Notes: generated from the sequence alone by a model not told the origin. A stretch of 21,378 nt of DNA from Candidatus Heimdallarchaeota archaeon (GCA_021399395.1 JAAFKJ010000180.1:1-21378), one strand, 5' to 3'. Numbered from the stretch's first letter, positions 1 through 21,378 are shown. Numbers and translations are program-made.

Positions 1-402
1 CCAGCAGGTATAGAAGGTATACTAGTAAGTGACCCATCTCATCAAGAAATGGCCTTGAACTTGAGACACCCTGTCTTTGGTACCGGTGAATTGACACCCG
101 TAGGAACTCTCGAAGCTGCTAAAAACGTAAGAAAAGCTATTAGTCATGCTGTTCCACGTGATATCATCGTTTCACAAATCCTTGAAGGACTTGGTGCAGA
201 AGGTGTTACTGCATGTCCAAACGTAGCACTTGCCTATGATGAATCACTTGACCCATATGCATATGATCTTGATATAGCTATTGACTTTATGGAAGAAGCT
301 GGATTCGAAGTTCGTGCAGCAGGTTCTGGAATAGCCGGATTAGTATTCTTATCAATACTAGGTCTAGCTTCATTGATAGCATTCAGAAGATTTAGAAAAT
401 AA
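1..402 (+). CDS. C-terminal part of ABC-type peptide/nickel substrate-binding protein with C-terminal membrane anchor (5' truncated by window)
   Basis: Frame is open from base 1. Motifs VRKAISHAVPRDIIV and PYAYDLDIAIDFMEEAGF are typical of family-5 SBPs. Ends in a hydrophobic helix plus RRFRK. Confidence 0.8.
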   Translation, partial: PAGIEGILVSDPSHQEMALNLRHPVFGTGELTPVGTLEAAKNVRKAISHAVPRDIIVSQILEGLGAEGVTACPNVALAYDESLDPYAYDLDIAIDFMEEAGFEVRAAGSGIAGLVFLSILGLASLIAFRRFRK

Positions 403-432
403 AGAGTTTAACTCTTTACCCTTTTTTTCTTT
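401..432 (+). terminator. Hairpin plus oligo-T terminator
   Basis: AAAGAGTT-T-AACTCTTT palindrome (401-417) followed by T tracts, between convergent genes. Confidence 0.55.
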
Positions 433-469
433 TTATCAGATTAGATTAAAGGCGAGATTCTAGTATTTT

Positions 470-3400
470 TTATTCAAAAAGTCTGAGAACAGTTTTACAA
501 TATGGACACCGTTCATTATCTTTAATCCAAGCTACTAGATGATCAAAATGAAATAGATGTTCACACACTGGACATTCAATAGCGTTTTCATAAACGGGTT
601 GAAAGCAAACCATGCATTTTAATGCATCATCTTTTGAATCTACCATTTTCTTCCCCTTAATGATTACTTGTTTCATGAATTTCGCAGTTTTGGAAACACT
701 CTCTGCAACTATTGAAGTCTCCTTAGAAACAGGAGTTTGTTTTATCTCTTTTTCGGATATTACTTCTGCATTATTTTGTAAATAGTTTAAATATTTTCCA
801 AGTTCTTCCCTATCGATATGAGGGTCACCTATAACAACCAATTTCTTCTTTGCTCTTGTTATAGCAACATTTAATCTTCTTGCATCAGAGAATCCTCTTT
901 TGCCTTTTGAAAGGGTTTCAGTTAAGGAAAGTAGAATTAATTCTCTGTCACTCCCTTGAAAACGATCGACAGTATCGACAACAGTTTTTGGAGGTAAAGA
1001 ACGTCTTAGTTCTCCAACTTGCCCTCTATAAGGGCAGATGACACCAATTTGGTTAGGTTCTAAACCCAGTTCAAAGAATTTTTTAATGATTTCACTTGCT
1101 GTTTGGACTTCCTCTGAATTGACTTTATTTTCCGGATTGAAAATTCCATTAACAGGTACATAAACCAAAGGAGTCTTTGGATCGTAAATTGATGAATTTT
1201 TAAAGTCACTATAATCTCCTGAAAAACTTTTTAGTTCCATCAAATTCTGAAAACGAACTAAATCATCAAAGGATTCAAGTTTATTATTATAAAAAGTTTG
1301 ATTTGAAAACTCCATAAGTTTCTCATTCATCCTAAATTGGTGAGTGAGAAGATGTACTGATTCTGATGTGTTTTCAGCAAGTCTTTGAAATAAAGACACA
1401 CTCATTCCTTCTTTTTGGCCTTTAGGACTTTGAACAACAGGTGGAAGTTGTTTATGATCGCCAACTAGAATGAATCTATTTCCTTCCAGTAAAGCAGATA
1501 AAACAGTTGGTTCAGTCATTTGACTTGCTTCATCAATTATTATTGTTCGTATCCCTAAACGTTCGTAAACTGGATTTGAAATTGTGGATGTAGTAGCAAC
1601 GATTATTGAGAAATCGTTAATTATATCTTTTGCTGATCTCTCTGGATTTTGTTTCTTATAAGCTACTAAAGTATAATCTCTTATTTCAGGTTGAATTGCA
1701 TGAGTAGAGCCTAGTCTTATAAATTTGGTAAACTGATTCTCTAACAGATACTTACAGATATTATCCACTGCTCTATTTGTAAAAGCAGTTAGAAGTATTT
1801 TATCACCTTGCTTGGACAATTCAATTGCTGATTTAGCAATCACATATGTTTTTCCAGTTCCAGCTGGACCTTGAACTAAACTATAATTTTGAGTTCCCAA
1901 TATCTTACTCACTGCTTCATTTTGTACGGGATTTGTGGGGATGTATTTCCCTTGTATAGGATTAATAACCGATTTTTCGCCTTTTACGATTAACTCTCTA
2001 AAATTATTTCTTTTGAAAATGATGTTGAACAGACCCCTTTGCTGTCGCCTATACCCTACATCAATTGAATACACGTCTATTACCGAAACTGATCCGCTCA
2101 TAGTTCGGGTTTCAATCTCAACAGAAGTTTCTGAGATACTTGAAATCACTCCCGTACTAACGAGGCCTTGGACTAGTTTACCATCACTTAAAACAACAAT
2201 ATCTCCCTCTCTCAGTTCACTATTATTTTTGCACGAGAAGAGTAATTTGGTAGATACACCAGCTTTTATTTCATTCTCAAGTTTAAGATTTTTTATTGCC
2301 TTTCCTTTTGCTATTCTTTGTTCTATAGACAATTTCCATAAATCCGATAAAGTCCTAGAAGACTCAGCTTTCTCATATTTAATCCATTTTGAGTACTTTT
2401 TGAAGTAGTCTTGATGTCCAGCAGGTAGTGCATTTTTAGTACAAAGTTGATCATGCGGACAAGTTTGACATCTTCTTTCTTGATTTAATCCTGCACATAG
2501 TAATGCACAAAAATGCTTAACAAAACAACTTTTACATCTATTCAATTGGGATTCAGGTAAAATTGGTGGAACAAAACCTAGATGTGATATGCGATAAGCA
2601 ATGTTCCTTTGTTCCATTCCATAACGTAAAAGTCCCCAATTTGGACTAGCTTCTTTGAAAACAGCTTGATTAGTTCCAACATAAATAACAGTCCCATCAT
2701 GCTGTTTTGAATCATCTATATGGTCTTGAATACCATAATTGTATAAAGCGACTTGCAGTAAATCAGAAAAACGAATGTCACGCTCTTCAGACACTTTACC
2801 CGTTTTCAACTCATAAATACGGTCCTCATTGAAAAGATCGATTCTACCTCTAATACCAAAAAAGGGAGACAAAAATAGCATTTCGGGTAGAGCGTCAGGA
2901 CCAAGTGTTGAGACAAATGAATCTAGACTTTCTGTCATTTTTCTAACATCTTGATGAACTGACTCTTTCTTATAACCATGATACTCATATTGTAAAGAGA
3001 ATGAATCTAATATTTCAGGTAGCACATCTGAAGGCTTAGATTTACTTGCAACTGCCAATCCCAAACTGTCATGAACTATAGAACCCCTTATCGCAATATA
3101 AGGGGAAGGAGTATCACCGATAATTTCATTGATATAATAACTACGAGGACAAAAAGAAACACTGTTTATAGAAGTAGCATAAAGCAAGACATCAGGATCA
3201 ATAACCACAATTGATTTCTTGCTAGCAGAAAAATAAGTAGAACCATTCTCAGTAATTTGATCAATATTAAAGATTTTAATCGGAGTATAAGGAGCAAGAT
3301 AATCAGCAATCTCATGCCAAGGTGACCAGAGATTAACAATAAAATGCTTCTTTTTTACATCAACAAGAATAGAGGAAAGAGGATTGTCTCCACCTTTGGA

Positions 3401-3508
3401 AGAAAGAGCTTTGAGAAAAACACAGTCTAGATTTTGCATAGTCAACAAATTATCTGGAAAATGATATAAAGAGTTTTCCGACCAGTTCCAAGATGAAAAT
3501 GGAGACAA
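470..3508 (-). CDS. DNA2/Cas4-like PD-(D/E)XK nuclease + SF1 (Upf1/Dna2) helicase with C-terminal RING-like finger
   Basis: CPR...GRID...ELKTG...QVALY...CKSCFVKHFC (iron-staple nuclease). Helicase motifs GPAGTGKT, DEASQ, GDHKQLPP, FQGSDR, RLNVAITRAK. C-terminal CxxC...CPxCxHxFHxxH...W...CPxC. TTG start. Confidence 0.9.
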   Translation of the reverse strand: MSPFSSWNWSENSLYHFPDNLLTMQNLDCVFLKALSSKGGDNPLSSILVDVKKKHFIVNLWSPWHEIADYLAPYTPIKIFNIDQITENGSTYFSASKKSIVVIDPDVLLYATSINSVSFCPRSYYINEIIGDTPSPYIAIRGSIVHDSLGLAVASKSKPSDVLPEILDSFSLQYEYHGYKKESVHQDVRKMTESLDSFVSTLGPDALPEMLFLSPFFGIRGRIDLFNEDRIYELKTGKVSEERDIRFSDLLQVALYNYGIQDHIDDSKQHDGTVIYVGTNQAVFKEASPNWGLLRYGMEQRNIAYRISHLGFVPPILPESQLNRCKSCFVKHFCALLCAGLNQERRCQTCPHDQLCTKNALPAGHQDYFKKYSKWIKYEKAESSRTLSDLWKLSIEQRIAKGKAIKNLKLENEIKAGVSTKLLFSCKNNSELREGDIVVLSDGKLVQGLVSTGVISSISETSVEIETRTMSGSVSVIDVYSIDVGYRRQQRGLFNIIFKRNNFRELIVKGEKSVINPIQGKYIPTNPVQNEAVSKILGTQNYSLVQGPAGTGKTYVIAKSAIELSKQGDKILLTAFTNRAVDNICKYLLENQFTKFIRLGSTHAIQPEIRDYTLVAYKKQNPERSAKDIINDFSIIVATTSTISNPVYERLGIRTIIIDEASQMTEPTVLSALLEGNRFILVGDHKQLPPVVQSPKGQKEGMSVSLFQRLAENTSESVHLLTHQFRMNEKLMEFSNQTFYNNKLESFDDLVRFQNLMELKSFSGDYSDFKNSSIYDPKTPLVYVPVNGIFNPENKVNSEEVQTASEIIKKFFELGLEPNQIGVICPYRGQVGELRRSLPPKTVVDTVDRFQGSDRELILLSLTETLSKGKRGFSDARRLNVAITRAKKKLVVIGDPHIDREELGKYLNYLQNNAEVISEKEIKQTPVSKETSIVAESVSKTAKFMKQVIIKGKKMVDSKDDALKCMVCFQPVYENAIECPVCEHLFHFDHLVAWIKDNERCPYCKTVLRLFE

Positions 3509-3527
3509 TTAGATGAAAATTCAGGAG

Positions 3528-3535
3528 CTTAAATA
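3528..3535. promoter_or_regulatory. TATA box possibly shared by the divergent DNA2-like gene and tnpB
   Basis: CTTAAATA (+) / TATTTAAG (-) lies about 20 nt from both start codons (3508 and 3557), consistent with leaderless transcripts. Confidence 0.5.
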
Positions 3536-3556
3536 GCAAAAACCTACTAGAGTAGT

Positions 3557-4759
3557 ATGGTTATTGTCCTGCGGACTGAACGGATAAAACTGAACCCTTC
3601 CTTCACGCTTATGCAGTTAGCAAGACAAAGTAAGAACCTATACAACTATGGGAATTACATTATCAACAAACAATTGCAAACGAGCAACTATATGACCTCA
3701 GAGTATGAGTTAGTCAATATACTCAGATATCACCCGTGTTATACTTGTATGCCAGCGCATAGTGCGCAACAGACCATTAAATTTCTGGTAAAAGCATGGA
3801 AATCATTCTTTCAATCTAAAAAAGAGTTTAGAAAAAATCCAGAAAAATACATGTTCAAAGAACCACAGCCACCCCAGTATAAGAAGAAGAAGGGGTTTTA
3901 CACCATTTACTTCACCAAGAATCAAGTAAGAATAAAAGAAGAAGGATGGATGTATTTCCCAAAACGAGTGGGGTTGAAAATCAAGACAAAACGGGTGGAA
4001 GACAAGAACATCAATCATATCAGGATTCTGTTCAAAGGGACAAGTTTTATCGTAGAACTCATCTATAAGGAAGAACTAGAAGAATTTCAAGAACGAGAAA
4101 CTAACCACATTCTCGCTATTGATATAGGGGTTAACAATTTAGTAGCTGGAGTGAGTATTAGTATGCGCCCTTTCCTTATTCCTGGACGGAAACTCAAAGC
4201 CATCAACCAGTGGTACAATAAAGAGAAGGCGCGCATACAATCGGTCTATGATCTCCATGGATTAAAAGAGTACGGGGAAAAGATGAAGGAACTACAAGTC
4301 AAACGTTATTGGCAAGTGGAAGATTATTTGCATAAAACTTCAAGAATTGTGATTAATCTATGTCTCAAACACAATATTGACACGATTGTGATTGGGTACA
4401 ACCCTAGGTGGAAACAGAAGACTAAGATGGGGAAGCGTACCAACCAGACCTTCGCCTATATTCCTTTTTACAAACTCATCCAGAAACTTCGTTATAAAGG
4501 AGAAGCTGAGGGTATCCAGATTCTGCTGACTGAAGAATCTTATACTTCTAAGTGTTCTTTCATCGATAATGAGCATCTGGGAAAACATAAAAAATACGTT
4601 GGTAGGAGAGTTAAACGTGGTCTCTTCAAAAGCAAGGAAGGAGTTCTGTTGAATGCTGATCTTAACGCAGCAGGAAATATAGGACGTAAAGTATTCTCGG
4701 TGGTGTTCACCTACGGGACAGTGGATGCCGTGAGTCATCCTACCTGTTTGACTGTCTAG
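3557..4759 (+). CDS. tnpB: RNA-guided endonuclease TnpB (IS200/IS605/IS607 accessory), solo, rearranged RuvC
   Basis: SKNLYN N-terminal motif; AIDIG (D189); IVIGY (G280); EESYTSKCS (E326/E327); RVKRGLF; NADLNAAGNI (D368). No tnpA adjacent. Confidence 0.92.
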   Translation: MVIVLRTERIKLNPSFTLMQLARQSKNLYNYGNYIINKQLQTSNYMTSEYELVNILRYHPCYTCMPAHSAQQTIKFLVKAWKSFFQSKKEFRKNPEKYMFKEPQPPQYKKKKGFYTIYFTKNQVRIKEEGWMYFPKRVGLKIKTKRVEDKNINHIRILFKGTSFIVELIYKEELEEFQERETNHILAIDIGVNNLVAGVSISMRPFLIPGRKLKAINQWYNKEKARIQSVYDLHGLKEYGEKMKELQVKRYWQVEDYLHKTSRIVINLCLKHNIDTIVIGYNPRWKQKTKMGKRTNQTFAYIPFYKLIQKLRYKGEAEGIQILLTEESYTSKCSFIDNEHLGKHKKYVGRRVKRGLFKSKEGVLLNADLNAAGNIGRKVFSVVFTYGTVDAVSHPTCLTV

Positions 4760-4875
4760 GGTAACCGAAGCAGAGATGATAACAGGAGGAAGATTGACGT
4801 TCAGAAACGGACGGAAATTTAACTCATATATAAACATGTGGGTAAAAATATCCGAATAAATTTTTTTGTTCAAAC
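4721..4875 (+). ncRNA. Putative TnpB omega/reRNA scaffold overlapping the tnpB 3' end
   Basis: Hairpins GGATG/CATCC (4723-4740); CCTGTT/AACAGG (4743-4786) enclosing GG-GTAA-CC; CGGA/TCCG (4812-4854) enclosing ACTCATAT/ATGTGGGT. TTCAA at 4869-4873 resembles an IS605-type right end. Boundaries are approximate. Confidence 0.6.
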
Positions 4876-4926
4876 CAAATTTTAAAATCAAAGATTGAGA
4901 TAATTGAACATAATTAAGTGATTTAA

Positions 4927-5400
4927 ATGGCAGATGATGTTTTTATTTTTGACAGTAGCGGAATACCATACTATAGTAGGTGTTTCGGGGGAGAAACATG
5001 CAAGATGAGACCAGATCATACTTTACAGACAGGATTTTTAGCTGCACTATATGCATTTTCAAAAGAATCATATGGACAACAGGAGATTCAGACAGTAGTT
5101 TTTACAGACTTGAAACTACATTTCAAAGTAGATAATGAAAAAAATGTAATAGTAGTATTTACAACCCCCATGGAAGAGAAGGATGAAGAAGTAAAAAATC
5201 AATTAGAGATGACTTATGGAGCATTCTTAGAGAAGTACGAAGATAAGATAGGAAGAGGTTATGCTGAACCTGCGGTTTTTGATAGTTTTGATGAAGTGTT
5301 ATATAATTTAAATGTGGTCAAGTCTAAACCGATGGGAATGATAAACCTTGGGGAGAAAGTACGAGGATGGAAAAAGTTGTTTAGAAGATATAGACATTAA
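4927..5400 (+). CDS. Longin-like domain protein (Asgard eukaryotic-signature type)
   Basis: VFIFDSSGIPYYSRCF...LQTGFLAALYAFSKE pattern with beta-beta-alpha-beta-beta-beta-alpha layout. Confidence 0.65.
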   Translation: MADDVFIFDSSGIPYYSRCFGGETCKMRPDHTLQTGFLAALYAFSKESYGQQEIQTVVFTDLKLHFKVDNEKNVIVVFTTPMEEKDEEVKNQLEMTYGAFLEKYEDKIGRGYAEPAVFDSFDEVLYNLNVVKSKPMGMINLGEKVRGWKKLFRRYRH

Positions 5401-5445
5401 GAAAAACTATAGATAAATAATAAGGACAAAAAAAGAAAAAGTAAT

Positions 5446-6725
5446 TTAGAAGTTTCTTCTTCTTCGCAATAAGATTGCTATAGCTGGAAAAAGCAGTGTC
5501 ATTAGTGAGATATATGGGAAGAATATGGTAACTGTTCCAGGATCAGTTTCACTATTTGATGGCATTGTTGTTTCAAATGTTGAGTTAAGAGGATATAAAT
5601 CAACAGAACCAGCAGGACCATCTATACTATAAGTAGCTGTAGAAAAATCAGACCAATAATTACCAGTAAGTAGAATAGGTTCATACCAAAGGTTAGAAGC
5701 TTCAGAACAAAAAGCTTGAGAGCTACTACCTACATTATCAATGAAATTATTTGTATAGATTGTATTTGACATAGAAGAAGAATCGATTGTCACACCATAG
5801 TTACCATTTTGTTTAATGTCATTTAAGTGAATTATAGAGTTGTCTGACCATGAGAGAGAGAGATTCCAGCTCCCGTATTTTGATGAATTCTGTTTTTACG
5901 AATATCAGCATTGTCACAACCTTCAAAATTTAGACCTTCATTGTTGTAAACAAGTGTGTTATTTACTATATCCAAATTAGCAGCGAGAAGTGCAAAGATA
6001 CCATAGTTGTTGTATGCACAATAATTATCCATTATTAATGAATTATCACCTGAATCTGTTGCAATTCCCTCATAAGTGTTATGAAGTACTTGGTTGTTAG
6101 AAATTGTGACATAAGTGGAAAAAGCCACAAATATACCAAATTCATTATTAAAGCAAGTATTATCCAAGATTACACAAAAATCGCTTTCCTCAATGTAGAT
6201 ACCGTCACTAGCATTAGCAAAATAATTGCCTTTTATCTCAGAATAGTCACAATTGAACATATCCAAAGCAGTCCAAGCAGAAACAACAACGTTGTCTTTA
6301 ATGACCGATTCGTGACAACCATTCCAGATAGATATCCCACTGTTTTCTGAACTGGTTAGAAAATTATTGAGGATTGAGACAGTACCAGGAGTCACACTAT
6401 TGATGAAAATACATCTGTCTGTAGAATTTATTGAACAGTGTTGGATGATGAAATGCCTTGTTGTGTCTTTGATTTCAATACCAATGCCAGAAGTTTCTAT
6501 TAAGAGATTTTCAATTAGATAAGGATAAAATTCACTACCATTACCCGAAAAACCAAAGGAATCAAAAGTATCATCGTCATAAATAACGATAGGATCATGG
6601 GGGATAAGGGAGGTTGAAAGAATCTGAGGTTCCACAAAAGGAATATTAAAAAAAGTTTCAGAAGAAGAAGAGACAAAAATAGAAAACAATAAAACAAAAA
6701 TTAGGAGAGTATATTTTCTTTTCAT
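5446..6725 (-). pseudogene. NosD-like right-handed beta-helix surface protein split by a 2-nt frameshift in a (CT)6 tract
   Basis: ORFs 5832-6767 and 5446-5793 join into one ~425-aa protein (signal peptide MKRKYTLL..., beta-helix repeats, GNYWS...DLYPL, C-terminal TM + RRRR) if one CT unit at 5852-5863 is removed. Confidence 0.8.
5852..5863. repeat. (GA)6/(TC)6 dinucleotide microsatellite at the frameshift point
   Basis: GAGAGAGAGAGA read directly. Confidence 0.9.
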
Positions 6726-6817
6726 AAGACCACAAACCAAGAGTCTGTATACATTGCTCAAGAGCACTTATAAGAGTATTCAGAAAAAGAGTGAGGTGAG
6801 AGGGAAGGGATTTTAGT

Positions 6818-6890
6818 GGAGCTAACGCCTACTGCAGTGGTGCAATAAGAAAATCTCACGATATTAGAGATAATTAGTTAAGTTAGATCC
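6818..6890 (-). ncRNA. Unnamed structured small RNA/element, copy 1 (73 nt)
   Basis: Closing stem GGAUCUAAC/GUUAGCUCC (one mismatch), hairpin AUCUC/GAGAU, hairpin CUUAUUGCA-CCAC-UGCAGUAGG. TATA upstream and pyrimidine tract downstream. 64/73 identical to copy 2. Confidence 0.6.
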
Positions 6891-6911
6891 AATACTATAT
6901 TAGGTTTTGAC

Positions 6912-6919
6912 TTTTAAAA
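6912..6919 (-). promoter_or_regulatory. TATA box for small-RNA copy 1
   Basis: TTTTAAAA 21 nt before the closing stem, with the same spacing in all three copies. Confidence 0.55.
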
Positions 6920-7023
6920 CTACCAAGAAAAAAATTTAAAAAAAACTCTTTTTAGAGTTTTTTCCTTTCATAATCTACTTTTTGCTAAAGGTTTAATAAT
7001 TCTAATCCTAATATGATTAGAGG

Positions 7024-9021
7024 ATGAATTTGAGTAGAGAATCAAAAAAGTATCTAGTGATTTTGATATCTTTAATTATTGTAATCGGGGGACTAATGGA
7101 AGTAAATCTAAACACTATTGCACTTAATTCTGATAATGAACCACCTTCCTATTCTCATAGTGATCTGCTTGAGTTTGAAGGAATCACAATAAATAATGAA
7201 AATAACGCTCTCATTAAGATAAGTAATGATGAAAATTTCACTGATTATGGTTTTTCAGGAATTGGTACTGCGGAGGAACCATACAGAATTGAAAATCTCT
7301 CAATTGAAACAAATAATGATATAGGAATATTCATTGAAAATACAACAAAATTCTTTGTTATTGAGAACTGTACAATTGAAGCCATATATTGTGCAATTTA
7401 TATATTTAACATTGCAGAAGGAACAGCTCTCATAGAAAACAATACGCTTTCAGGTATCTTTTATCATGATATCTTTCTGGAATCCTCGTCAAGCTTAGAA
7501 GTTATAAACAATATATGTTATGGATCAGATTATTATAGTCCCGCACCTTTTGAAGTATTAAATAGTGGCATTAAATTAGAGAGATCTCACAATACAAAAG
7601 TATTGAACAATAACTGCAGTAGCAATATGTATGGGATTCATGTTTTTTCATCATTGAATGTAACGATAGAAAACTGTGCTTGTGTGGAAAATATCAAATG
7701 TGGTATAAGAAGTGACTATTCTGATGATTTAATTATATCTGATACTCACTGCTATTCAAACAACATTGGTATTTCTATTAAATCAAGTTCTTTTAACTTA
7801 ATCACTTTCAATTTCTGTTTTCACAATACTATAGGTATTGAAGTATACTATTCGCAAAATCTGAATATAGAGAATAATACATGTGAAAACAACGAGGTTT
7901 ATGGAATAGAAATAAGCCATTCTACAAGAACAAATTTGAGAAATAATGAGCTTTACAATGATAGTATTATATTAAATGAAGATTGGATAACTGAATATTT
8001 TACGTACGAACTTGAGAACAACTATGTTAACGATAAAATAGTAGGTTTCTTTATTTATGAAGAAGATTTGGATATCTCTACATCTATTTATGGACAAATA
8101 ATAATGATTGGTTGTAATAATATCACTATCCGTAACCAGAATGTAAGGAATATTAATGCATTCTTATTTTTCGAACACTGCTACGAAGTAACGATTACTG
8201 ATAATGAATTTGGATATAGTAGTGTTAGTGTGGTACATATAGACAATGGTTGCGAGATTTTAATAACTAACAATACTTTCATTAGTAATCTTTTTGGAAG
8301 TGAAGTGAAGAATTCATACTTTGTAACAATTGAAAATAATCTATTTGAGAACAATGTGTACAGTGGGATTTTCCTGAGAGGGTCTGAACATGTAAATATA
8401 CAGAATAATCAGATAAGCAATACTAGGGATTATGGAATTCTTATAGATGATGCTCAAAATATAGTAGTTAAGGACAATATGTGTAGAGAGAATGGTGCTG
8501 GGATAGTTTGTTGGGGTTCGGTTGATTTACATATAACTAACAATATATTAGATACAAATGTAATAGGAGTATCTACTCTTGATTGTTGTGGAGTTTTTAT
8601 TTCCGAAAATACCTGTATAAACAATAGAAGGGGGATAGTTTTATCGATTTCATGCTATTATTTTACTATAAGTTACAATCTCTTACAAAATAATTCTGAG
8701 TATGGAATAGAGATTAGTAGAAGTTCTCAATACAATACTATACATCATAATAGCTTTTTAGACAATAATATGGGAAGACAATCACAAGCTCTAGATGATG
8801 GAGAATATAATATTTGGTATGAAGTAGAAACAAAAGAAGGAAATTACTGGTCATCTTGGAACAGCAAAGAACCATATTTAATTGAGGGTGAAGCAGGTTC
8901 AGAAGATCTTTATCCATTGAATGAAGAACTGGACAAGATAAGCTATAGTTATTGGCTAGGATTACCGATTCTCATAATTTTGACAATAGGCATGAAGAGA
9001 TTGAAAAAGAAGAGAAAATGA
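7024..9021 (+). CDS. NosD-like parallel beta-helix surface protein
   Basis: N-terminal hydrophobic helix, many GIxIxxSxNxxIxNN repeats, G.GT.EEPY.IENL motif, GNYWS...GSEDLYPL, C-terminal TM + KRLKKKRK. Confidence 0.88.
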   Translation: MNLSRESKKYLVILISLIIVIGGLMEVNLNTIALNSDNEPPSYSHSDLLEFEGITINNENNALIKISNDENFTDYGFSGIGTAEEPYRIENLSIETNNDIGIFIENTTKFFVIENCTIEAIYCAIYIFNIAEGTALIENNTLSGIFYHDIFLESSSSLEVINNICYGSDYYSPAPFEVLNSGIKLERSHNTKVLNNNCSSNMYGIHVFSSLNVTIENCACVENIKCGIRSDYSDDLIISDTHCYSNNIGISIKSSSFNLITFNFCFHNTIGIEVYYSQNLNIENNTCENNEVYGIEISHSTRTNLRNNELYNDSIILNEDWITEYFTYELENNYVNDKIVGFFIYEEDLDISTSIYGQIIMIGCNNITIRNQNVRNINAFLFFEHCYEVTITDNEFGYSSVSVVHIDNGCEILITNNTFISNLFGSEVKNSYFVTIENNLFENNVYSGIFLRGSEHVNIQNNQISNTRDYGILIDDAQNIVVKDNMCRENGAGIVCWGSVDLHITNNILDTNVIGVSTLDCCGVFISENTCINNRRGIVLSISCYYFTISYNLLQNNSEYGIEISRSSQYNTIHHNSFLDNNMGRQSQALDDGEYNIWYEVETKEGNYWSSWNSKEPYLIEGEAGSEDLYPLNEELDKISYSYWLGLPILIILTIGMKRLKKKRK

Positions 9022-9058
9022 TAGGATAAAAAAGAGGGGGTGAGGGAAAGGAAATAGT

Positions 9059-9131
9059 GGAGCTAACACCTACTGTAGTGGTACAATAAGAAAATCTCAC
9101 GGGTTGAGAGATAATTGGTTAAGTTAGCTCC
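9059..9131 (-). ncRNA. Unnamed structured small RNA/element, copy 2 (73 nt)
   Basis: Perfect 9-bp stem GGAGCUAAC/GUUAGCUCC, AUCUC/GAGAU hairpin, CUUAUUGUA-CCAC-UACAGUAGG hairpin. Pyrimidine/U tract follows on the minus strand (9028-9054). Confidence 0.65.
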
Positions 9132-9209
9132 GACAATATAAAGGGTTTTGACTTTTAAAACTACAAAGAAAAAATTAGAAAAAGAAAAATGATGTCCGAA
9201 TGTTTACTC
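9123..9209. repeat. 87-bp direct repeat, left copy
   Basis: 86/87 identical to 11557-11643 (single G/A difference at 9150/11584). Confidence 0.95.
9153..9160 (-). promoter_or_regulatory. TATA box for small-RNA copy 2
   Basis: TTTTAAAA 21 nt upstream of GGAGCTAAC on the minus strand. Confidence 0.55.
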
Positions 9210-9388
9210 AAAATGAATAAGTAGGAACAAATTTGAGTTTTATTGCAAGTGATATCATCGAATATGGCAGTCCAAGTCGAAAAAGTTTATTGTATGGTAA
9301 ATTGATTGAATGAAAATTTGCTTTAAAAAGAGAGAAAAAGGATAGCTATACATATGTTATACTAAAGCTAGTTCCTTGATAGGTATTA

Positions 9389-10051
9389 TTAAGCTGTTTT
9401 TGTTCTTCTCCTATTTACTACTAGGATTGCGCATGAAATTAAGAGCGTGATAACTAATACGATAGATATTTCAGAACTTAATTCTGGAAGTGTATAAATT
9501 ACGAAGTCAGCATAGTATATATTCATAACACCAGATATGACAGTGATATTTGTGAGTAACACTTCTGCTGGAGCAACCCAACCAAGTGAGGACGCAGTAT
9601 TTATAGGTCGCCAAAGAGTATAGTTGCCATCAGGAAGCTGGGATAAACCTGATTGGTTAATATAAAACAAAATGGAACCATTTTCTTTAGTGATACCTGA
9701 TGGATAAATATAGCTTGCCCCCTCATCAATAACCATTCCTAGTTGTTCAAGTTCTAGTGATTGATTTACAAATGAAGCATTAATCTGAACTACATATTCG
9801 GGAATATCCAATTCGATTACTGTTTGGTTTTTATTATCTCTGTTTAAAATCTCCACTTCTAAACTCATTTCAAATAGGGTTTTGTTAGGATTATAATGAT
9901 CACCAGAAATGATTATATCTATGTTTTCATTGATTTTTGAAACCCTAGAAGCAATAACTGGTACTTCACCATTTACTGAGAAGATACTTGAAAAAAGAAG
10001 CAATGGTATCATGATTAGAACAATCAAATATTTTTCCATGGATTTATTCAT
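9389..10051 (-). CDS. Secreted, C-terminally anchored hypothetical (glyco)protein
   Basis: Signal peptide, multiple N-x-S/T sequons, C-terminal TM + RRRTK. Confidence 0.75.
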   Translation of the reverse strand: MNKSMEKYLIVLIMIPLLLFSSIFSVNGEVPVIASRVSKINENIDIIISGDHYNPNKTLFEMSLEVEILNRDNKNQTVIELDIPEYVVQINASFVNQSLELEQLGMVIDEGASYIYPSGITKENGSILFYINQSGLSQLPDGNYTLWRPINTASSLGWVAPAEVLLTNITVISGVMNIYYADFVIYTLPELSSEISIVLVITLLISCAILVVNRRRTKTA

Positions 10052-10132
10052 AATTTTTTTCTCTCCTTTTGATTTTACATCCGATTAATCTTTAATGTGT
10101 ATTTGAATACAAGATATTAATGTTCTTAGTTT

Positions 10133-11311
10133 TTAGGATGCTAATGTACCTTCAGTATAGGCCTTTCCATATGCAAGATAAGCATCCACGTACCCATATC
10201 CCATTTTTTGATCAAATGTGCTCCTAGAACTAGCATATAGTAGGATATCAACTACTTTTTGCAATGAAGGATCAGTAGAATCCCCAATACCATTGTGGTA
10301 TCCTGTAATTATTAAAGCAATGATAGCAGTTAAGTAAGGAGTGCTAAGACTTGTCCCATAAGCATAACGCCAATAGTAGTCTAGTTGAATGGGGCGATTC
10401 AACTTAGGGATACCATTTCCTGGTGCTAGCCAATTCACAATGTGATTTCCTGATACATTAGTTGTGAACCATGACGAAAAACTTGATCTTCCATTCTTTG
10501 TTGAGAGTGGTGTACCAGTAGTACGTGTTTCATGATCAATTGATCCAATACAATACCAGTGTGAGTAGTACTGTGGATATTTATACTCTATACTATTAGC
10601 TTGATTCATATAGTTTCCCTTATTACCTGCTGAAGCGACCATTATTACATCTTTGCTTAGTAAATCATCCCATTTCTGTAGAATTTGACTAGTTGCAAAA
10701 TCTTGCGACTTACTTAGAGAACAAGTGATAATGTCGATATCTTTTGATGCTTGGTTATCATCAAGCCATTCCCAAAGTTTGTAATCATCAAACTCAAATC
10801 CATAAGGATCGGTTTTAAATAGATTACTCATTTGTATATCTACAAAAATCACTTTTACATCCCTTGCTATAGCTGCAATTGCTGATATAACAGTAAGTCC
10901 GTGAATAAAAAAAACTTGATCATCCAAATAGGAATCTTCAGGATCAGTAATCCATTTAATATTACTTTCGTCATCTTCTGTTAGAAAACCAACAATGTCC
11001 ACGTTAGTTATAGAATTTTGTTCCAATTCCTTCCAATCTTCTTCAACAAGACCAGTATCAATCACAACTATTGTGACATAATCATCTATTTCTACACCAT
11101 AATCATAAACTACACAATCTGCTCCAGTGTATGTATATGATGTATCTTGAAGTTCTCCTACTTTTACGGATGGATTAGGTACAGTATATCCAGGAACTCC
11201 ATTGATTAAAATTTCTTCATGGATTATATTTAAGCTTAGAACAGGAGCTGTTCCTGCTAACATTATTATAGATAACGAGAGAATCTTTCCCATTATTCTA
11301 CATTTTTTCAT
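10133..11311 (-). CDS. Secreted S8 (subtilisin-like) serine peptidase
   Basis: VVIDTG (Asp), IHGLTV (His), SAGN (oxyanion Asn), GTSLSTP (Ser), GYGYVDA, and a signal peptide. Confidence 0.88.
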   Translation of the reverse strand: MKKCRIMGKILSLSIIMLAGTAPVLSLNIIHEEILINGVPGYTVPNPSVKVGELQDTSYTYTGADCVVYDYGVEIDDYVTIVVIDTGLVEEDWKELEQNSITNVDIVGFLTEDDESNIKWITDPEDSYLDDQVFFIHGLTVISAIAAIARDVKVIFVDIQMSNLFKTDPYGFEFDDYKLWEWLDDNQASKDIDIITCSLSKSQDFATSQILQKWDDLLSKDVIMVASAGNKGNYMNQANSIEYKYPQYYSHWYCIGSIDHETRTTGTPLSTKNGRSSFSSWFTTNVSGNHIVNWLAPGNGIPKLNRPIQLDYYWRYAYGTSLSTPYLTAIIALIITGYHNGIGDSTDPSLQKVVDILLYASSRSTFDQKMGYGYVDAYLAYGKAYTEGTLAS

Positions 11312-11512
11312 TTATAGTTCACTCATTTAATTCTGTTTAATTACAGTTTTGTATTTATTTAAATATTTTTCAAATTGGTCTAAAACTTGTAAAAAATCCT
11401 AAGCTTTTTACCATAAATTCTTTATGTTTAGGATTTGGAATAATATTATATTATGAACCAAATGAAAACTCAAAGACATTTATAAGAGAATTAAGAAAAA
11501 AGGAAATAAGAG

Positions 11513-11565
11513 TGGTGGAGCTAACTTTTACTATAGTGGTAGTAATGAGAAATAATGTTAGCTCC
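11513..11565 (-). ncRNA. Unnamed structured small RNA/element, copy 3 (short, ends UAGCUCCACCA)
   Basis: Perfect GGAGCUAAC/GUUAGCUCC stem, lacks the AUCUC/GAGAU hairpin, retains UUACUA-CCACUA-UAGUAA. TATA TTTTAAAA at 11587-11594. Confidence 0.55.
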
Positions 11566-11643
11566 GACAATATAAAGGGTTTTAACTTTTAAAACTACAA
11601 AGAAAAAATTAGAAAAAGAAAAATGATGTCCGAATGTTTACTC
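11557..11643. repeat. 87-bp direct repeat, right copy (includes last 6 nt of the ferredoxin gene)
   Basis: 86/87 identical to 9123-9209. Confidence 0.95.
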
Positions 11644-11811
11644 GTAATCTATACACTCACTAGGACATTCATCTATGCATAATCCGCAATCTGTACAATC
11701 GTCTTTTCTTGCTACGACGGCTACGTCTTCTAAATCATAAACGTTTTCTGGACAGATATCTACACAAGCTCCACAAGCAATACAGCATTCCGCATCTACT
11801 TTTGTTGGCAT
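11638..11811 (-). CDS. 2[4Fe-4S] ferredoxin, 57 aa (not in ORF track)
   Basis: MPTKVDAECCIACGACVDICPENVYDLEDVAVVARKDDCTDCGLCIDECPSECIDYE*, with two CxxCxxCxxxCP motifs and GGTGA RBS upstream. Confidence 0.95.
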   Translation of the reverse strand: MPTKVDAECCIACGACVDICPENVYDLEDVAVVARKDDCTDCGLCIDECPSECIDYE

Positions 11812-11940
11812 TTTTTATTTCACCTAAGTACTTAATTTTTCTTTTTCTACTTCTCTTTTTAAACTCTTCTCTCCCGACCTACTAATTAATGGAATTTCAG
11901 AATGAGTTTTAATAGAAAAGAGAAAAATAAGGAGAGAAGA

Positions 11941-14184
11941 TTATTTTATTTGAGTTGATCTTCCTCTTGCAAAATCAGCTATGACAATGTAGGAGACTAT
12001 TTTCGCAAATTCTGTCGAATTGCTCAATATTCCAACTACCTGTTGTGTTGCTTCATCGGTGGCTGCTATGAGTACCTCTTCATTCTCTCTCTCTACTCCT
12101 ATGAATTGTGGTAGACTCACACCTGTTCCCATATCTCTGAATTTTCTTACTTCTACATTTGCTTCTGCTGCATAAGCTGAATCTATCCATTCTCTATTTG
12201 TCTGTTCATCTAGATAAGTTACTATTGTAACTCTCACTGTTGTTGGTAGAGACTTCACAGCATCCAAGGGTATATACTCAGGTTTTGGAGACATAATTGT
12301 GACACTTCGTTTTGCAGCTCTCACTATTCTGTCAAGATGACTTATTGTAGCATCAAGTCCGATAATTGAAGTTGTCTCAACTCGAGGAACGGGAGAATCT
12401 TTAGTAGTTGCTTCTAAGGTTCTGAAATCGTTCTTAATCTTCATCGTCAAAGAAGATAGATGATTCGCTGTATCAGTATATTTACCACCTGTTTCTTCTA
12501 AGAAACTTGTAGCTGCGGTTACTTCTTCATTGAGCCCCCCTGCAATTAATTCCTTACTTTCTTTTATTTGTGTCTTTGAGGAATTAACCAAATCATTTGC
12601 TACTTTTAGTGATGATTCAAGAGTTTGATCCAAGTAGTTGCTCAAATCTGATGTGATGCTAGTTGTAGTTGCACCTATCATATTGATTGCTTCTTGATAT
12701 TTTGCATTGATTTTAGCTTCATTTTCTTGGGTTAAGGTTTCAATTTGAGAGGATAGTTCCATCCATTTTTCTTTTAAACCCTCAATTTCAGTTCCTAAGG
12801 ATTGCTGTACATTATTATTGAGTTGATTAGATACATCTCTGAACTGTTGAACGTGTTCATTCATGCTGTCGAAAATGGTTGAGGTTATCCCAGTGAATTG
12901 GTTGGTTAGAGTTTCTTTAAATGAACTCAATCTGGTTCTTGCAGTATCTTGAATCTCTGTTATCTTTGCATTATAACTTTGAATTGCTTCATTATAACGA
13001 GTGTCAAGTTTTTGTGCAAACATATCTCTTTCACTGATGAGATTATTTCTCTGGGTTTGTTCGCTATTCTGCAAATCTGTAAATTTCAGATTCATGTCTT
13101 CTTTTATCTGTGAGATAGTTCCCGATATTGTATTGTTTCTTTGCTGTTCAAACTCATTTGTTAAACTCTGTTTGATTTCTGACACTTTCTCATTCAGAGA
13201 TGAGATCGCTTCTTGGACTTGAAGAGAAAGTTCTTCCACTTTTCTGTTTAAAATCATTTCAAGTGAAGTATTTAAATCACCAAGTGAACCAGACACAGTT
13301 TCTGTTAGATTATCAATGGTTGCTTCAGTTTTTCTAACTGTTTCAGTTGAGAATCCTACATATTTCTCAGATTGGTCTCTATTGAATCCTCTAACATCAA
13401 TTTTTGTTATATCTATGTTTTGCTGTATAACTTCTGCAATTTCATTTAGATGATTTAGATAATTCTCTTCTAACATCTCAATTTTAGGTTCTAAAGTTTG
13501 AGAAATCTCGTCAATCTTTGCAGATTGTTGTTTAACATTTTGATCAACATTTGAAATCGAACTGGTAATGGCTTCTGAATTAGAACTTCGAATATTCTCC
13601 AAACTTGAATCAGCTGCAGTTTTAGCAGCGGATATTGTATCAACGTTATTTTGTAGAACTTCTTTTATTGACGCTCCAACAAACTGTTTTTCTTCTTCTT
13701 GTATGCTTGTGAGTTTTTCTTTTATTACATTCGATTTACTCTCAAGATTTTCTCTTCTTTGGTTAGTTAGAGATTGAAGATTAGCAGAAACGCTTGAATA
13801 TTGTTGGTCTAACTCTTCTTCTTTCTTAGCCAATGAAGAGTTGAGTTGATTTACCATATTTGATCTTAGTTGGTTGAACTCTGTCTGTTTGTTTTGGATA
13901 AATGTATTAGTATTCTCTAAATATCCCTTGATACTCGAATTAATTTTATCACTTGTTTCAGCCAGATATTCTAAAGGTATTCTAACAAAATATTTTTTCA
14001 CATAACCCTCCGAAACACCTACAGCCCCTTTATTAATGAGAGAACTCAAAGCAACCTCTACTTTGGAGAAGTGAAGTTTTCCATGCTCAGCAATTTCAAA
14101 TGCTGTTAATTGGCCTGTTCCCAGGAGTAATGTATATACTTGTTTTTCTTCTGGATTTAATTGTAATCTTTCTATAAATGACAT
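11941..14184 (-). CDS. TrmB-like wHTH + very long coiled-coil/helical insert + TrmB/PLD-like C-terminal domain
   Basis: LNPEEKQVYTLLLGTGQLTAFEIAE...LINKGAV (TrmB HTH), ~500 aa Q/E/N/S-rich amphipathic helices, IIG...AAKRSVTIMSP C-terminal domain. Confidence 0.7.
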   Translation of the reverse strand: MSFIERLQLNPEEKQVYTLLLGTGQLTAFEIAEHGKLHFSKVEVALSSLINKGAVGVSEGYVKKYFVRIPLEYLAETSDKINSSIKGYLENTNTFIQNKQTEFNQLRSNMVNQLNSSLAKKEEELDQQYSSVSANLQSLTNQRRENLESKSNVIKEKLTSIQEEEKQFVGASIKEVLQNNVDTISAAKTAADSSLENIRSSNSEAITSSISNVDQNVKQQSAKIDEISQTLEPKIEMLEENYLNHLNEIAEVIQQNIDITKIDVRGFNRDQSEKYVGFSTETVRKTEATIDNLTETVSGSLGDLNTSLEMILNRKVEELSLQVQEAISSLNEKVSEIKQSLTNEFEQQRNNTISGTISQIKEDMNLKFTDLQNSEQTQRNNLISERDMFAQKLDTRYNEAIQSYNAKITEIQDTARTRLSSFKETLTNQFTGITSTIFDSMNEHVQQFRDVSNQLNNNVQQSLGTEIEGLKEKWMELSSQIETLTQENEAKINAKYQEAINMIGATTTSITSDLSNYLDQTLESSLKVANDLVNSSKTQIKESKELIAGGLNEEVTAATSFLEETGGKYTDTANHLSSLTMKIKNDFRTLEATTKDSPVPRVETTSIIGLDATISHLDRIVRAAKRSVTIMSPKPEYIPLDAVKSLPTTVRVTIVTYLDEQTNREWIDSAYAAEANVEVRKFRDMGTGVSLPQFIGVERENEEVLIAATDEATQQVVGILSNSTEFAKIVSYIVIADFARGRSTQIK

Positions 14185-14315
14185 GATTGCACCTTTAATT
14201 CTTCAAAGTTCAATGTCTCAAACCAAGATATTAAGCTTTCTTATAATGCAACTAACAATCGTCCCCAGTGATAAGTTTTTTAACAAGCTACTAGTTGTAT
14301 TTTCTGTGGTTAAAG

Positions 14316-14930
14316 ATGGAAGATTATGAGATAGTCTCTTGGGATCAAAGCTACCAAATGACATTCTATCTGTTTGAAAAAATAACAGAGGATAGATTCT
14401 TTCCAGATATAATTGTAGGAATAGCAAGAGGTGGTTGGATTCCAGCTAGATTACTAGCTGATTTTTATGGAAATAGAAGAACAGCTAATATCAAGATAGA
14501 ATTTTATGATGATAATTCTAGAGCTACTGAAAATCCAATTATTACTCAGAAGATTTCTGAAGGCGTGGAAGGAAAAGTTATACTAATCGTAGATGACGTT
14601 GCAGATAGTGGAAAGAGTTTGGTTGCAGCTATCGAACATATTAAAGAAATGGGGGCAAAGGAAATCAGGACTGCAACTCTGTATTACAAGGAACACAGTA
14701 TAATCAAACCAGATTACTATATCAATGAAACAGAATCATGGATAGTTTATCCCTGGGAGTATGGAGAATATATTGCATTCCAATATAAAACAAATAAAGA
14801 CAAAATGTCTAGTAAGGATATAAGAAAGAAACTAAAAGACATAGGAATACCTCCTCCTTTAGTTGATGCGTATTTCTCCTTGGTACTTTCAAATGGAAAC
14901 TTGAATGAGATGAATAGAAATGAACAATAA
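14316..14930 (+). CDS. Purine (xanthine/guanine/hypoxanthine) phosphoribosyltransferase family
   Basis: IVGIARGG, VILIVDDVADSGKSL PRPP-binding motif, KPDYY, WIVYPWE. Likely start is ATG 14316. Confidence 0.88.
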   Translation: MEDYEIVSWDQSYQMTFYLFEKITEDRFFPDIIVGIARGGWIPARLLADFYGNRRTANIKIEFYDDNSRATENPIITQKISEGVEGKVILIVDDVADSGKSLVAAIEHIKEMGAKEIRTATLYYKEHSIIKPDYYINETESWIVYPWEYGEYIAFQYKTNKDKMSSKDIRKKLKDIGIPPPLVDAYFSLVLSNGNLNEMNRNEQ

Positions 14931-15243
14931 TGAGACAAATAACGAAGACCTTGAACTACCGGGTGATGTGATCGACCGAGTAAATGTTGGTGTGGTTGCA
15001 GTTTCTTTAAGCTTATACGAAGAAGGGATGAGCTTAGATGAATTAATAGAGGTTACCGGGATACGAAAAAAAGATGTATTGAAGAGTTTAGATTACCTAA
15101 TTCAAAATCGAATGGTTAGAAAGAAAACTGGTTCTGATGTTCATGTAGTCTCGAATTTCAAAAAAATGTTACAATTCCTTCTCTCATCTGGACTTATGTT
15201 TCCTTTAGGAGATCAAATCTCAAAAACAAAAGAAGAAAAATAA
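14920..15243 (+). CDS. Small winged-helix DNA-binding protein
   Basis: GMSLDELIEVTGIRKKDVLKSLDYLIQNRMVRK; overlaps the PRTase stop (translationally coupled). Confidence 0.65.
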   Translation: MNNNETNNEDLELPGDVIDRVNVGVVAVSLSLYEEGMSLDELIEVTGIRKKDVLKSLDYLIQNRMVRKKTGSDVHVVSNFKKMLQFLLSSGLMFPLGDQISKTKEEK

Positions 15244-21258: not shown

Positions 21259-21378
21259 TTATTCAGCTCCTGTCTTTTCTTGAACATCTACTTTGGGTTC
21301 CTCTTTCTTAGGTTCCTCTTTCTTAGGTTCCTCTTTCTTAGGTTCCTCTTTCTTAGGTTCCTCTTTCTTAGGTTCCTC
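21259..21378 (-). CDS. C-terminal tail of upstream gene, probably exosome Rrp41 (truncated by window)
   Basis: Reads (EEPKK)5-EEPKVDVQEKTGAE*. Identity is inferred only from the conserved rrp41-rrp42 gene order. Confidence 0.55.
   Translation of the reverse strand, partial: EEPKKEEPKKEEPKKEEPKKEEPKKEEPKVDVQEKTGAE
21296..21378. repeat. Perfect 15-bp tandem repeat GGTTCCTCTTTCTTA, >=5.5 copies, running off the window end
   Basis: Read directly; encodes EEPKK on the minus strand. Confidence 0.95.

Follow-up and report, generated by a model that had tools for sequence, protein, structure and literature searches.

Three repeats in a surface-protein gene block point to a candidate family of clamped small RNA genes in a Heimdallarchaeota genus

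Why should a block of archaeal surface-protein genes be punctuated three times by similar, stably folding intergenic repeats? The question is raised by a DNA stretch of 21,378 nt from Candidatus Heimdallarchaeota archaeon (GCA_021399395.1 JAAFKJ010000180.1:1-21378; the window, meaning this whole stretch at its full length), in which three minus-strand copies of one element are found at 6818-6890, 9059-9131 and 11517-11565 (copies 1, 2 and 3). An earlier note, made from the sequence alone, had described them at these positions as three paralogous, independently promoted, structured small RNAs of unknown family. The comparisons reported here suggest that the three repeats are copies of one member, here called subfamily A, of a family, not described before, of promoter-equipped small RNA genes. 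The family comprises at least 71 intergenic loci in 24 of the 25 genomes of a single genus, whose designation as Heimdallarchaeota rests on the source names of homologs.

The copies share one layout. The TATA box TTTTAAAA is located on the minus strand at 6919-6912, 9160-9153 and 11594-11587, and in each case it is followed by a spacer of exactly 21 nt (6891-6911, 9132-9152 and 11566-11586, respectively) and then by an element of the form GGAGCUAAC...GUUAGCUCC, as had been claimed. Copies 1 and 2 are both 73 nt long and differ at nine of the 73 positions, four of them within the loop of an internal helix (P2). The closing stem of copy 1, GGAUCUAAC/GUUAGCUCC, does contain the single U.C mismatch described previously, while the 9-bp closing stem, or clamp, of copy 2 is perfect. 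Copy 3 retains an intact clamp and forms a 49-nt hairpin, about 24 nt of the interior being deleted. All three elements run into pyrimidine-rich tails, as the earlier note had it, with 15, 17 and 17 pyrimidines among the first 20 nt in copies 1, 2 and 3. The C/U-rich tail of copy 1 (6784-6817) contains UCACCUCAC and ends in a T5 run (T5 at +29), that of copy 2 (9028-9058), also C/U-rich, has a T6 run and adjoins the 3′ end of a convergent gene for a 665-amino-acid protein (stop at 9021), and that of copy 3, ACCACUCUUAUUUCCUUUUUU (11496-11516), likewise has a T6 run.

A covariance model built from five sequences and searched in 31 genomes recovered the known copies and one weak match in another genome of the genus (G001). 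Because this match had kept a homologous promoter but had a differing stem (GGAGCUAGC...GCUAGCUUC) and an unrelated interior, degenerate pattern searches were run, and these proved far more sensitive than the five-sequence model. The pattern GGAKCTARC-N25-70-GYTAGCTYC was present in 10 of the 24 other genomes of the genus and in none of 58 genomes of the class outside it, with no match for the reversed control. Its relaxed form GRRGCTARC-N25-85-GYTAGCYYC was found in 24 of the 25 genomes of the genus, at 66 loci in the relatives and five in the own genome, the reversed pattern giving one locus. Among 400 genomes of the phylum, the commonest form, GARGCTAGC...GCTAGCYTC, was detected in 19, every one a member of this genus, and in none of the 375 outside it. 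The own genome has six loci on four contigs; those outside the window lie at C28:7360-7436, C50:13405-13463 and C132:13301-13386 and were found by pattern search. About one to six loci were detected per genome. The analysis set of 71 consists of the six own loci and 65 of the 66 loci of the relatives with their flanks, a contig-end duplicate (G016:C323:5-70) having been dropped. All genomes are metagenome-assembled, the own genome being 81.8% complete, and the counts are lower bounds. In addition, degenerate clamp-like hairpins, GGAGCUAGC...ACUAGCUCC and GGAGCUA...UAGCUCC, each with a C/U-rich tail, were seen 100-250 nt downstream of a family member at G021:C136 and G022:C85, and since the search pattern misses these, the true size of the family exceeds the count.

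Several other searches led nowhere. The pattern GGAGCTAAC-N30-60-GTTAGCTCC retrieved unrelated sequences from genome contigs; among the 80 of 107 matches listed almost all were bacterial, mostly repeats of Planctomycetaceae. A relaxed scan of the own genome gave 292 candidates and was too noisy for use.

The earlier note's idea of an RNA family is borne out insofar as homologs exist beyond the window and their closing stem covaries. The consensus of the clamp is G(A/G)(A/G)GCUA(A/G)C paired with G(C/U)UAGC(U/C)(U/C)C, and six of its nine pairs are invariant across the 71 loci, the sole exception at position 4 being the U.C of copy 1. At position 2 there are 55 A-U, 13 G-C, two G.U and one A.C pairs, at position 3 there are 58 A-U and 13 G.U, and at position 8 the counts are 61 G-C, five A-U, four G.U and one A.C. 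The pattern used for collecting the loci admitted every purine/pyrimidine combination and did not demand pairing, and the near-absence of A.C is therefore a genuine observation. Moreover, G.U variants are kept in up to 10 genomes and both A.C variants are singletons. Since the opposite strand would turn every G.U of the clamp into A.C, the variants support, though not conclusively, pairing within an RNA transcribed from the promoter strand.

The promoter is the second constant feature. A TATA-like 8-mer was found 19-24 nt upstream of the element in one orientation only at 61 of the 71 loci, in both orientations at two and in neither at eight (at two of these eight the contig ends and the flank is missing). 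The spacer is 21 nt long in 43 of the 63 loci with a TATA-like box. Over 69 loci the base-by-base profile is G(-32) n G(-30) TTTWWAWR; 61 of the 71 loci have a pyrimidine at position -1, and all 71 have G at position +1. Such an arrangement of G-n-G, TATA and initiator corresponds to the geometry of B recognition element (BRE), TATA box and initiator expected of archaeal promoters, and comparable boxes precede the mature 5′ end of transfer RNA (tRNA) genes in the own genome by 24-36 nt. Each copy in the window has an archaeal promoter of its own, and the minus strand is the one that it implies, in agreement with the earlier note. The tail is similarly one-sided. On the chosen side it is more pyrimidine-rich than the sequence on the opposite side at all 71 loci, a comparison that is independent for 61 of them, as at the 10 loci without an unambiguous TATA box the side was picked by tail pyrimidines. 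At any one of the first 14 positions of the tail, G is found in no more than two of the 71 loci (0-2), and 36 of the 71 have CTCC within 30 nt compared to none on the other side.

The loci occupy intergenic positions: 68 of the 71 overlap no open reading frame (ORF) of at least 80 amino acids. Beyond the element, 39 loci meet a convergent ORF and 26 a co-directional one, and six have none within the flank. These numbers bear on whether the element could be a cis-acting 5′ leader of the next gene (that of the beta-helix protein, the subtilase or, in the relatives, the helicase), with the copies as duplicated promoter-plus-leader modules controlling translation or stability. Indeed, copies 1 and 3 and the orthologs in two relatives, G017 and G021, are co-directional with the next ORF at a distance of 50-205 nt, and among the 26 co-directional loci the distance is often a fixed 59-76 nt. 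Copy 2 and the other convergent loci, however, face the 3′ end of a gene, and because this holds for 39 of the 71 the family is not a set of 5′ leaders. In 11 of 22 spacers of the genus the helicase also has a conserved upstream box of its own, TTTACCCACATGTTTATTTAT, without any element and with the ferredoxin gene directly before it, and a second TATA-like box lies between the group-B loci (see below) and the next gene. Furthermore, the C28-type locus is uncoupled from its neighbor gene in most genomes: the gene has the RNA element upstream in one subclade only, and no clamp variant was found upstream of it in four other genera. Its product is, at a guess, a PNPOx-like protein. We consider the leader explanation unlikely. 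The loci have the promoter geometry and the intergenic position of stand-alone archaeal small RNA (sRNA) genes, from which a transcript is predicted.

Several loci have stable RNA genes as neighbors. At the C132 type and at G001:C14a the upstream neighbor is a same-strand tRNA gene about 80-450 nt away, a sub-threshold tRNA-like match precedes the C28 types, and the group-4 locus is 88 nt from the 3′ end of a 23S ribosomal RNA (rRNA) gene (neighboring features at L218 1161-1234, L253 479-549, L204 1014-1086 and L217 1148-2060). According to Rfam, the tRNA matches near family loci are separate neighboring genes.

How much structure lies inside the clamp? For subfamily A, the three-way junction drawn in the earlier note is reproduced exactly (P1, P2 and P3) by the minimum free energy structure of copy 1 and the centroid structure of copy 2, P1 being the clamp, P2 being AUCUC/GAGAU with a 9-nt loop, and P3 being a 9-bp helix capped by CCAC. 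The folding energies of copies 1, 2 and 3 are -18.2, -23.1 and -13.7 kcal/mol (z-scores of -3.7, -4.8 and -4.3, respectively), copy 2 folding best, and none of 200 shuffled sequences folded as well as the window copies. P3 does change in a compensatory manner from C-G in copy 1 to U-A in copy 2, as had been noticed, and its two U.G pairs are likewise confirmed. Folding energy does not fix the strand, as the plus strand gives folds at least equally good for copy 3 and for the orthologs in G017 and G021. In the alignment of subfamily A (five sequences from three genomes) 97.2% of the cells are paired and double changes affect two pairs of P3, and the covariation score was reached by nine of 500 shuffles of the five sequences; within the subfamily this weakly supports P2 and P3. 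By our reading of the alignments, the register of P3 is shifted in G017, G021 and copy 3. A metagenome scan for the 3′ half of subfamily A yielded five loci, of which three were identical to G017/G021 and two were unrelated coding DNA, and thus brought no new variation in P2 or P3. Also, a 22-nt plus-strand match to a beta-helix gene of G008 (E=0.004 per genome over 61 genomes) was judged to be due to chance.

The proposal of a conserved scaffold with a variable, specificity-determining loop does not extend to the family, whose conserved features are limited to the promoter spacing, the 9-bp clamp and the G-free tail, P2 and P3 being confined to subfamily A. The interior is 31-70 nt long and specific to each ortholog group, and the groups recur across up to 15 genomes. 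Here we name the groups by the own-genome contig or a letter. Group B (15 loci) has an invariant ACAUAAUUCUC, the C50 type (12 loci) has AUCCCC and UAUUUCU, and the C28 type (11 loci) has AUCUGCYWGGUG and either CAUCCCC or UCACCUCC; the C132 type has nine loci, subfamily A has five, and the remainder of the 71 includes several small groups. Within B, C50, C28 and C132, conservation is at the level of sequence, a large part of which is C/U-rich. The 16S rRNA of the genus has GGAUCACCUCCU at its 3′ end, and UCACCUCC, found in the loop of six of seven cluster-3 sequences (C28 type), is identical to its anti-Shine-Dalgarno stretch. Several 16S genes, among the loci of G001, G014, G005 and G010, contain extra sequence near the 3′ end, around helix 45, when compared with G009, and the 16S model matches of G002, G004, G005 and G014 measure 1511-1544 nt as compared with 1480 nt, which suggests small insertions or introns. 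The idea that the elements are rRNA guides was dropped, as complementarity did not exceed that of shuffles (see below), the single 15-mer match being the own overlapping flank of the locus.

The history of the three copies can be read from DNA that extends beyond the hairpins. The segments 6814-6945 and 9055-9186 are 85% identical over 132 nt, and 9123-9219 and 11557-11653 are 95% identical over 97 nt. The latter repeat spans the T-rich spacer up to the last codon and the stop codon of the ferredoxin gene, so that the duplicated upstream flank of copy 2 (9161-9209, minus strand) carries a relic of both at 9204-9209; therefore, DNA was duplicated and not an RNA. Copy 2 is a mosaic, with one difference from copy 3 upstream of the clamp and a copy-1-like body (9/73 differences). 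The description of the copies as independent paralogs accordingly has to be given up: they are segmental duplicates at the DNA level, the repeat reaching at least 75 nt upstream of the predicted start. An assembly artefact is excluded because contigs of four other sequencing runs, compared over window positions 1-15000, bridge each copy into unique flanks.

Copy 3 lies directly past the minus-strand gene for a 57-amino-acid 2x[4Fe-4S] ferredoxin (11638-11811), which is the conserved upstream neighbor of subfamily A in the own genome (G000), G017 and G021. Each of the latter two, of the same genus, has a single homolog of the element (82% and 79% identity, respectively) directly between this gene and the one for a Dna2-like nuclease-helicase with a RING finger, the ancestral downstream neighbor (470-3508 in the window, minus strand). 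In this window the two genes are parted by approximately 8 kb of inserted genes, a block (3557-11311) punctuated by the copies and absent from the ferredoxin-helicase spacer of G017 and G021. In 19 of the 22 genomes of the genus with an extractable spacer the element is absent downstream of the ferredoxin gene, the element-less spacers leading either to the promoter region of the helicase or to a convergent gene. Because of the single-copy spacers in G017 and G021 and the 19 element-less ones, subfamily A is specific to a small clade, copy 3 is at the ancestral place and the ferredoxin-helicase block is an insertion. By identity to G021, and as we read the alignment, the gap in copy 3 runs from the 3′ strand of P2 through the 5′ strand of P3.

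The inserted block begins with a plus-strand gene for a 400-amino-acid TnpB (3557-4759; OrfB_IS605 plus a Cas12f1-like TNB domain), for which diverged copies of equal length are seen across 3708-4611 in contigs of other runs. It is followed by a longin-domain protein gene (4927-5400, plus strand), whose homologs bear the source name Candidatus Heimdallarchaeota, and by a minus-strand beta-helix/NosD gene split into ORFs of 311 and 115 amino acids (5832-6767 and 5446-5793), which match the N- and C-terminal parts of the 665-amino-acid beta-helix/NosD paralog at 31% and 46% identity, respectively. The gene for this paralog (7024-9021, plus strand) faces copy 2 with its 3′ end. The block is completed by minus-strand genes for a 220-amino-acid membrane-anchored protein (9389-10051) and a subtilase (10133-11311). 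Outside it, ORF calling and a domain scan assign a minus-strand TrmB-like coiled-coil protein to 11941-14184, and at least five tandem 15-nt units of TTAGGTTCCTCTTTC at 21278-21378 run off the window end. A second conserved box, TCTTATAAnTnTCTTTGAG with the palindromic CTTATAAG, occurs on the minus strand at 6757-6788 and 11469-11500 and also at the G021 ortholog, about 30-45 nt past the 3′ arm; a role as promoter for the protein gene that follows is possible.

Given this history, the family may be real while its triplication in the window is a by-product: scars of unequal or illegitimate recombination during the 8-kb insertion, with at most one working copy and a punctuation that has no function. 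The repeat, at 95% identity, does bring along non-functional DNA, the relic of the ferredoxin stop codon. About 24 nt have been lost from copy 3, one clamp pair is mismatched in copy 1, G017 and G021 are single-copy and without the block, and the block includes the TnpB gene. On the other hand, all copies keep the TATA box, the exact 21-nt spacing, the +1 G, at least eight of the nine clamp pairs and the pyrimidine tail, and P3 was kept by a double change between copies 1 and 2 even though these differ at 9/73 positions. This explanation, which we regard as possible but on balance doubtful, is compatible with the stand-alone sRNA reading and not opposed to it.

An arrangement of this kind could also be taken for a row of DNA recombination sites, i.e., integron attC-like sites or hairpin att sites bounding gene cassettes, as in clusters of attC sites lacking integron integrases (CALIN-like), on which a recombinase would act in folded single-stranded DNA. 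Like attC sites, the elements are imperfect hairpins with conserved ends and a variable center situated between accessory genes: three sites 2.2-2.4 kb apart divide one- or two-gene modules of accessory surface proteins, the arms of subfamily A end in AAC...GTT, and GTTAGCT in the 3′ arm is similar to GTTRRRY, the core motif of attC. The chimeric copy 2, with copy-3-like upstream DNA and a copy-1-like body, would also fit recombination at such sites, and integrons are reported to be enriched in Asgard genomes (PMC9668308). No recombinase or integrase was found, however, among the 20 window ORFs scanned against Pfam. AAC/GTT is present at only five of the 71 loci, all of subfamily A, the others having AGC..GCT (61), AGC..GTT (4) or AAC..GCT (1), and the clamp is a continuous 9-bp helix. 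The flanks differ strongly, a promoter lying to one side of the element and a G-free tail to the other, neither of which attC needs, and the genes between the copies lie on both strands instead of in one orientation. The loci are mostly solitary (the own six are on four contigs), and the ortholog groups recur across genomes, their conserved flanks having been checked for some groups. Contigs of the four other runs over 1-15000 contain no joint between copies, although at their low depth absence is not shown. Taken together, recombination sites seem very unlikely.

More improbable still is a miniature inverted-repeat transposable element (MITE), or the remnant of an insertion sequence end, for which the 9-bp arms would be the terminal inverted repeats. 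Subfamily A does appear as an insertion of about 170 nt in the ferredoxin-helicase spacer of 3/22 genomes of the genus, with a TnpB gene nearby. Such an origin is nevertheless to be set aside because the interiors are unrelated between loci, being wholly different from one locus to the next and yet conserved across species at each. Furthermore, no target-site duplication was seen at the subfamily-A insertion, the copy number is low, and the nearest TnpB end is more than 2 kb away. Blastn gave no match in the phage and plasmid collections, and six pattern matches on viral contigs, without promoter and tail, look like chance.

No known RNA family accounts for the elements, which agrees with the earlier note. 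ARAGORN predicts no gene in the window and Rfam has no match there at the gathering score; in a check against Rfam 15 (4227 models), four matches at E<=10 fell within 6700-11750, none overlapping a copy, and 12 loci of other ortholog groups had no match at the elements. Nor are the elements tRNAs, with no RF00005 match at any element examined. (ARAGORN reports one "tRNA-Stop", with an anticodon reading a stop codon, elsewhere in the own genome at G000:C37:6458-6533.) The closest parallels are in architecture. Like the family, C/D box sRNAs are multigene, with conserved terminal elements that meet and an interior that varies by gene. The C box is RUGAUGA and the D box CUGA; no such boxes, no ACA box as in H/ACA guides and no k-turn were seen in the 71 sequences, the tail starting with U, C or A without an ANA rule, and no Rfam small nucleolar RNA match at E<=10 overlaps an element. 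Y RNAs and YrlA have paired ends forming a conserved stem, a variable interior, a pyrimidine/U-rich 3′ tail and several paralogs per genome, and in all these respects the family is similar to them. There is, however, no Rfam Y_RNA match at the elements, and the TROVE/Ro60 domain (PF05731) was found in just two of the 25 genomes of the genus (G017 and G021), with none in the own genome at its 81.8% completeness. Eight of the 10 other genomes in which the GGAKCTARC form was first found have no TROVE match. The TROVE/Ro60-like protein genes at G017:C29 (L198 1342-2943) and G021:C409 have neither an element nor an Rfam Y RNA beside them. A link to Ro and Y RNAs fails since TROVE is confined to these two genomes, and no element adjoins the gene.

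A precedent is provided by intergenic sRNAs of archaea by which ribosome-binding sites are masked, e.g., sRNA41 of Methanosarcina mazei (PMC5867862). Both sRNA41 and sRNA154 resemble the family in being small stand-alone intergenic genes with their own promoter and with pyrimidine-rich single-stranded segments able in principle to pair with purine-rich ribosome-binding sites (PMC5867862). No sequence or Rfam relationship to them was found, and here a multigene family shares one clamp and a G-free tail; for the family no targets were found in the scans that were run.

From all this, each copy is probably a stand-alone gene of a small non-coding RNA or has arisen from one by recent duplication of DNA. 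Transcription would begin, driven by the archaeal BRE/TATA promoter, at the initial G of the element. The 9 nt at either end of the RNA would pair into the almost invariant terminal clamp, enclosing an interior that differs between ortholog groups, and the transcript would run on into the G-free, C/U-rich single-stranded tail, ending at a T-run where one is present. The clamp, by joining the 5′-triphosphate end and the 3′ region, could serve for end protection and/or as a common protein handle. In the window, the subfamily-A gene was presumably triplicated as DNA, promoter included, when about 8 kb of surface-protein genes and TnpB entered the ferredoxin-helicase spacer.

A number of observations weigh against this reading. 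The sequencing runs that contain DNA of the window comprise six of DNA and none of RNA. The TATA expression behind the 61 of 71 loci was written post hoc, its opposite orientation (2/71) acting as the internal control. Counted as independent events, the clamp shows about five G.U against two A.C changes, and at nine of 16 loci with an assigned strand the antisense strand folds at least equally well. According to RNAalifold, groups B, C50, C28 and C132 retain essentially the clamp alone, although local hairpins limited to subgroups may have been missed; as four large groups show no conserved interior helix, the term structured RNA holds mainly for the clamp. A T5 run is present within 60 nt at only 34 of the 71 loci, which leaves the 3′ ends undefined. 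The mismatch in the clamp of copy 1 and the deletion in copy 3 mean that not all three copies need be functional. With regard to targets, the group-B loop motif has 12 complementary sites in the own genome compared to 11 for the reversed word, which is no enrichment, and perfect Watson-Crick stretches showed no significant complementarity to the 16S and 23S rRNA beyond shuffles in G014.

What the RNAs might do can be addressed only tentatively. The C/U-rich, anti-Shine-Dalgarno-like loop motifs and the tail could pair with purine-rich sites such as ribosome-binding sites, and the function that we consider most likely for the RNAs of the family, though at present less likely than not to be confirmed, would be that of trans-acting regulators. 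A further and more speculative extension is that each genome has a regulon-like set of several "clamped" small RNAs, in which the shared terminal stem would be the handle for a protein or a processing enzyme and each RNA would have its own conserved single-stranded seed and an anti-Shine-Dalgarno-like tail. An RNase III-domain protein (PF14622, 82-89 bits) was observed in all five genomes of the genus tested, e.g., at G000:C134:4622-4993, and in the control set PF14622 was seen in bacteria only (0/4 archaea). This protein is a possible processor of the clamp. A link to Argonaute was rejected, Piwi being present in one of the five genomes tested. In the portions available of the literature on sRNAs, non-coding RNAs and transcription starts in Asgard archaea and Heimdallarchaeota, no account of Asgard regulatory RNA families was found.

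For the window itself, the punctuation of the surface-protein block would be the DNA-level triplication of one gene of the family. For the genus, the 71 loci with their precise promoter-to-start geometry, covarying clamp and conserved ortholog groups make a family that can be used for covariance-model annotation. It also accounts for an arrangement that, in a group with reported integrons, might be taken for attC sites or the borders of cassettes. If the set of clamped RNAs is real, it would represent a modular, scaffold-plus-seed form of post-transcriptional control, convergent with eukaryotic Y RNA-like or microRNA-precursor-like architectures, and such a control system would be located in the closest archaeal relatives of eukaryotes.

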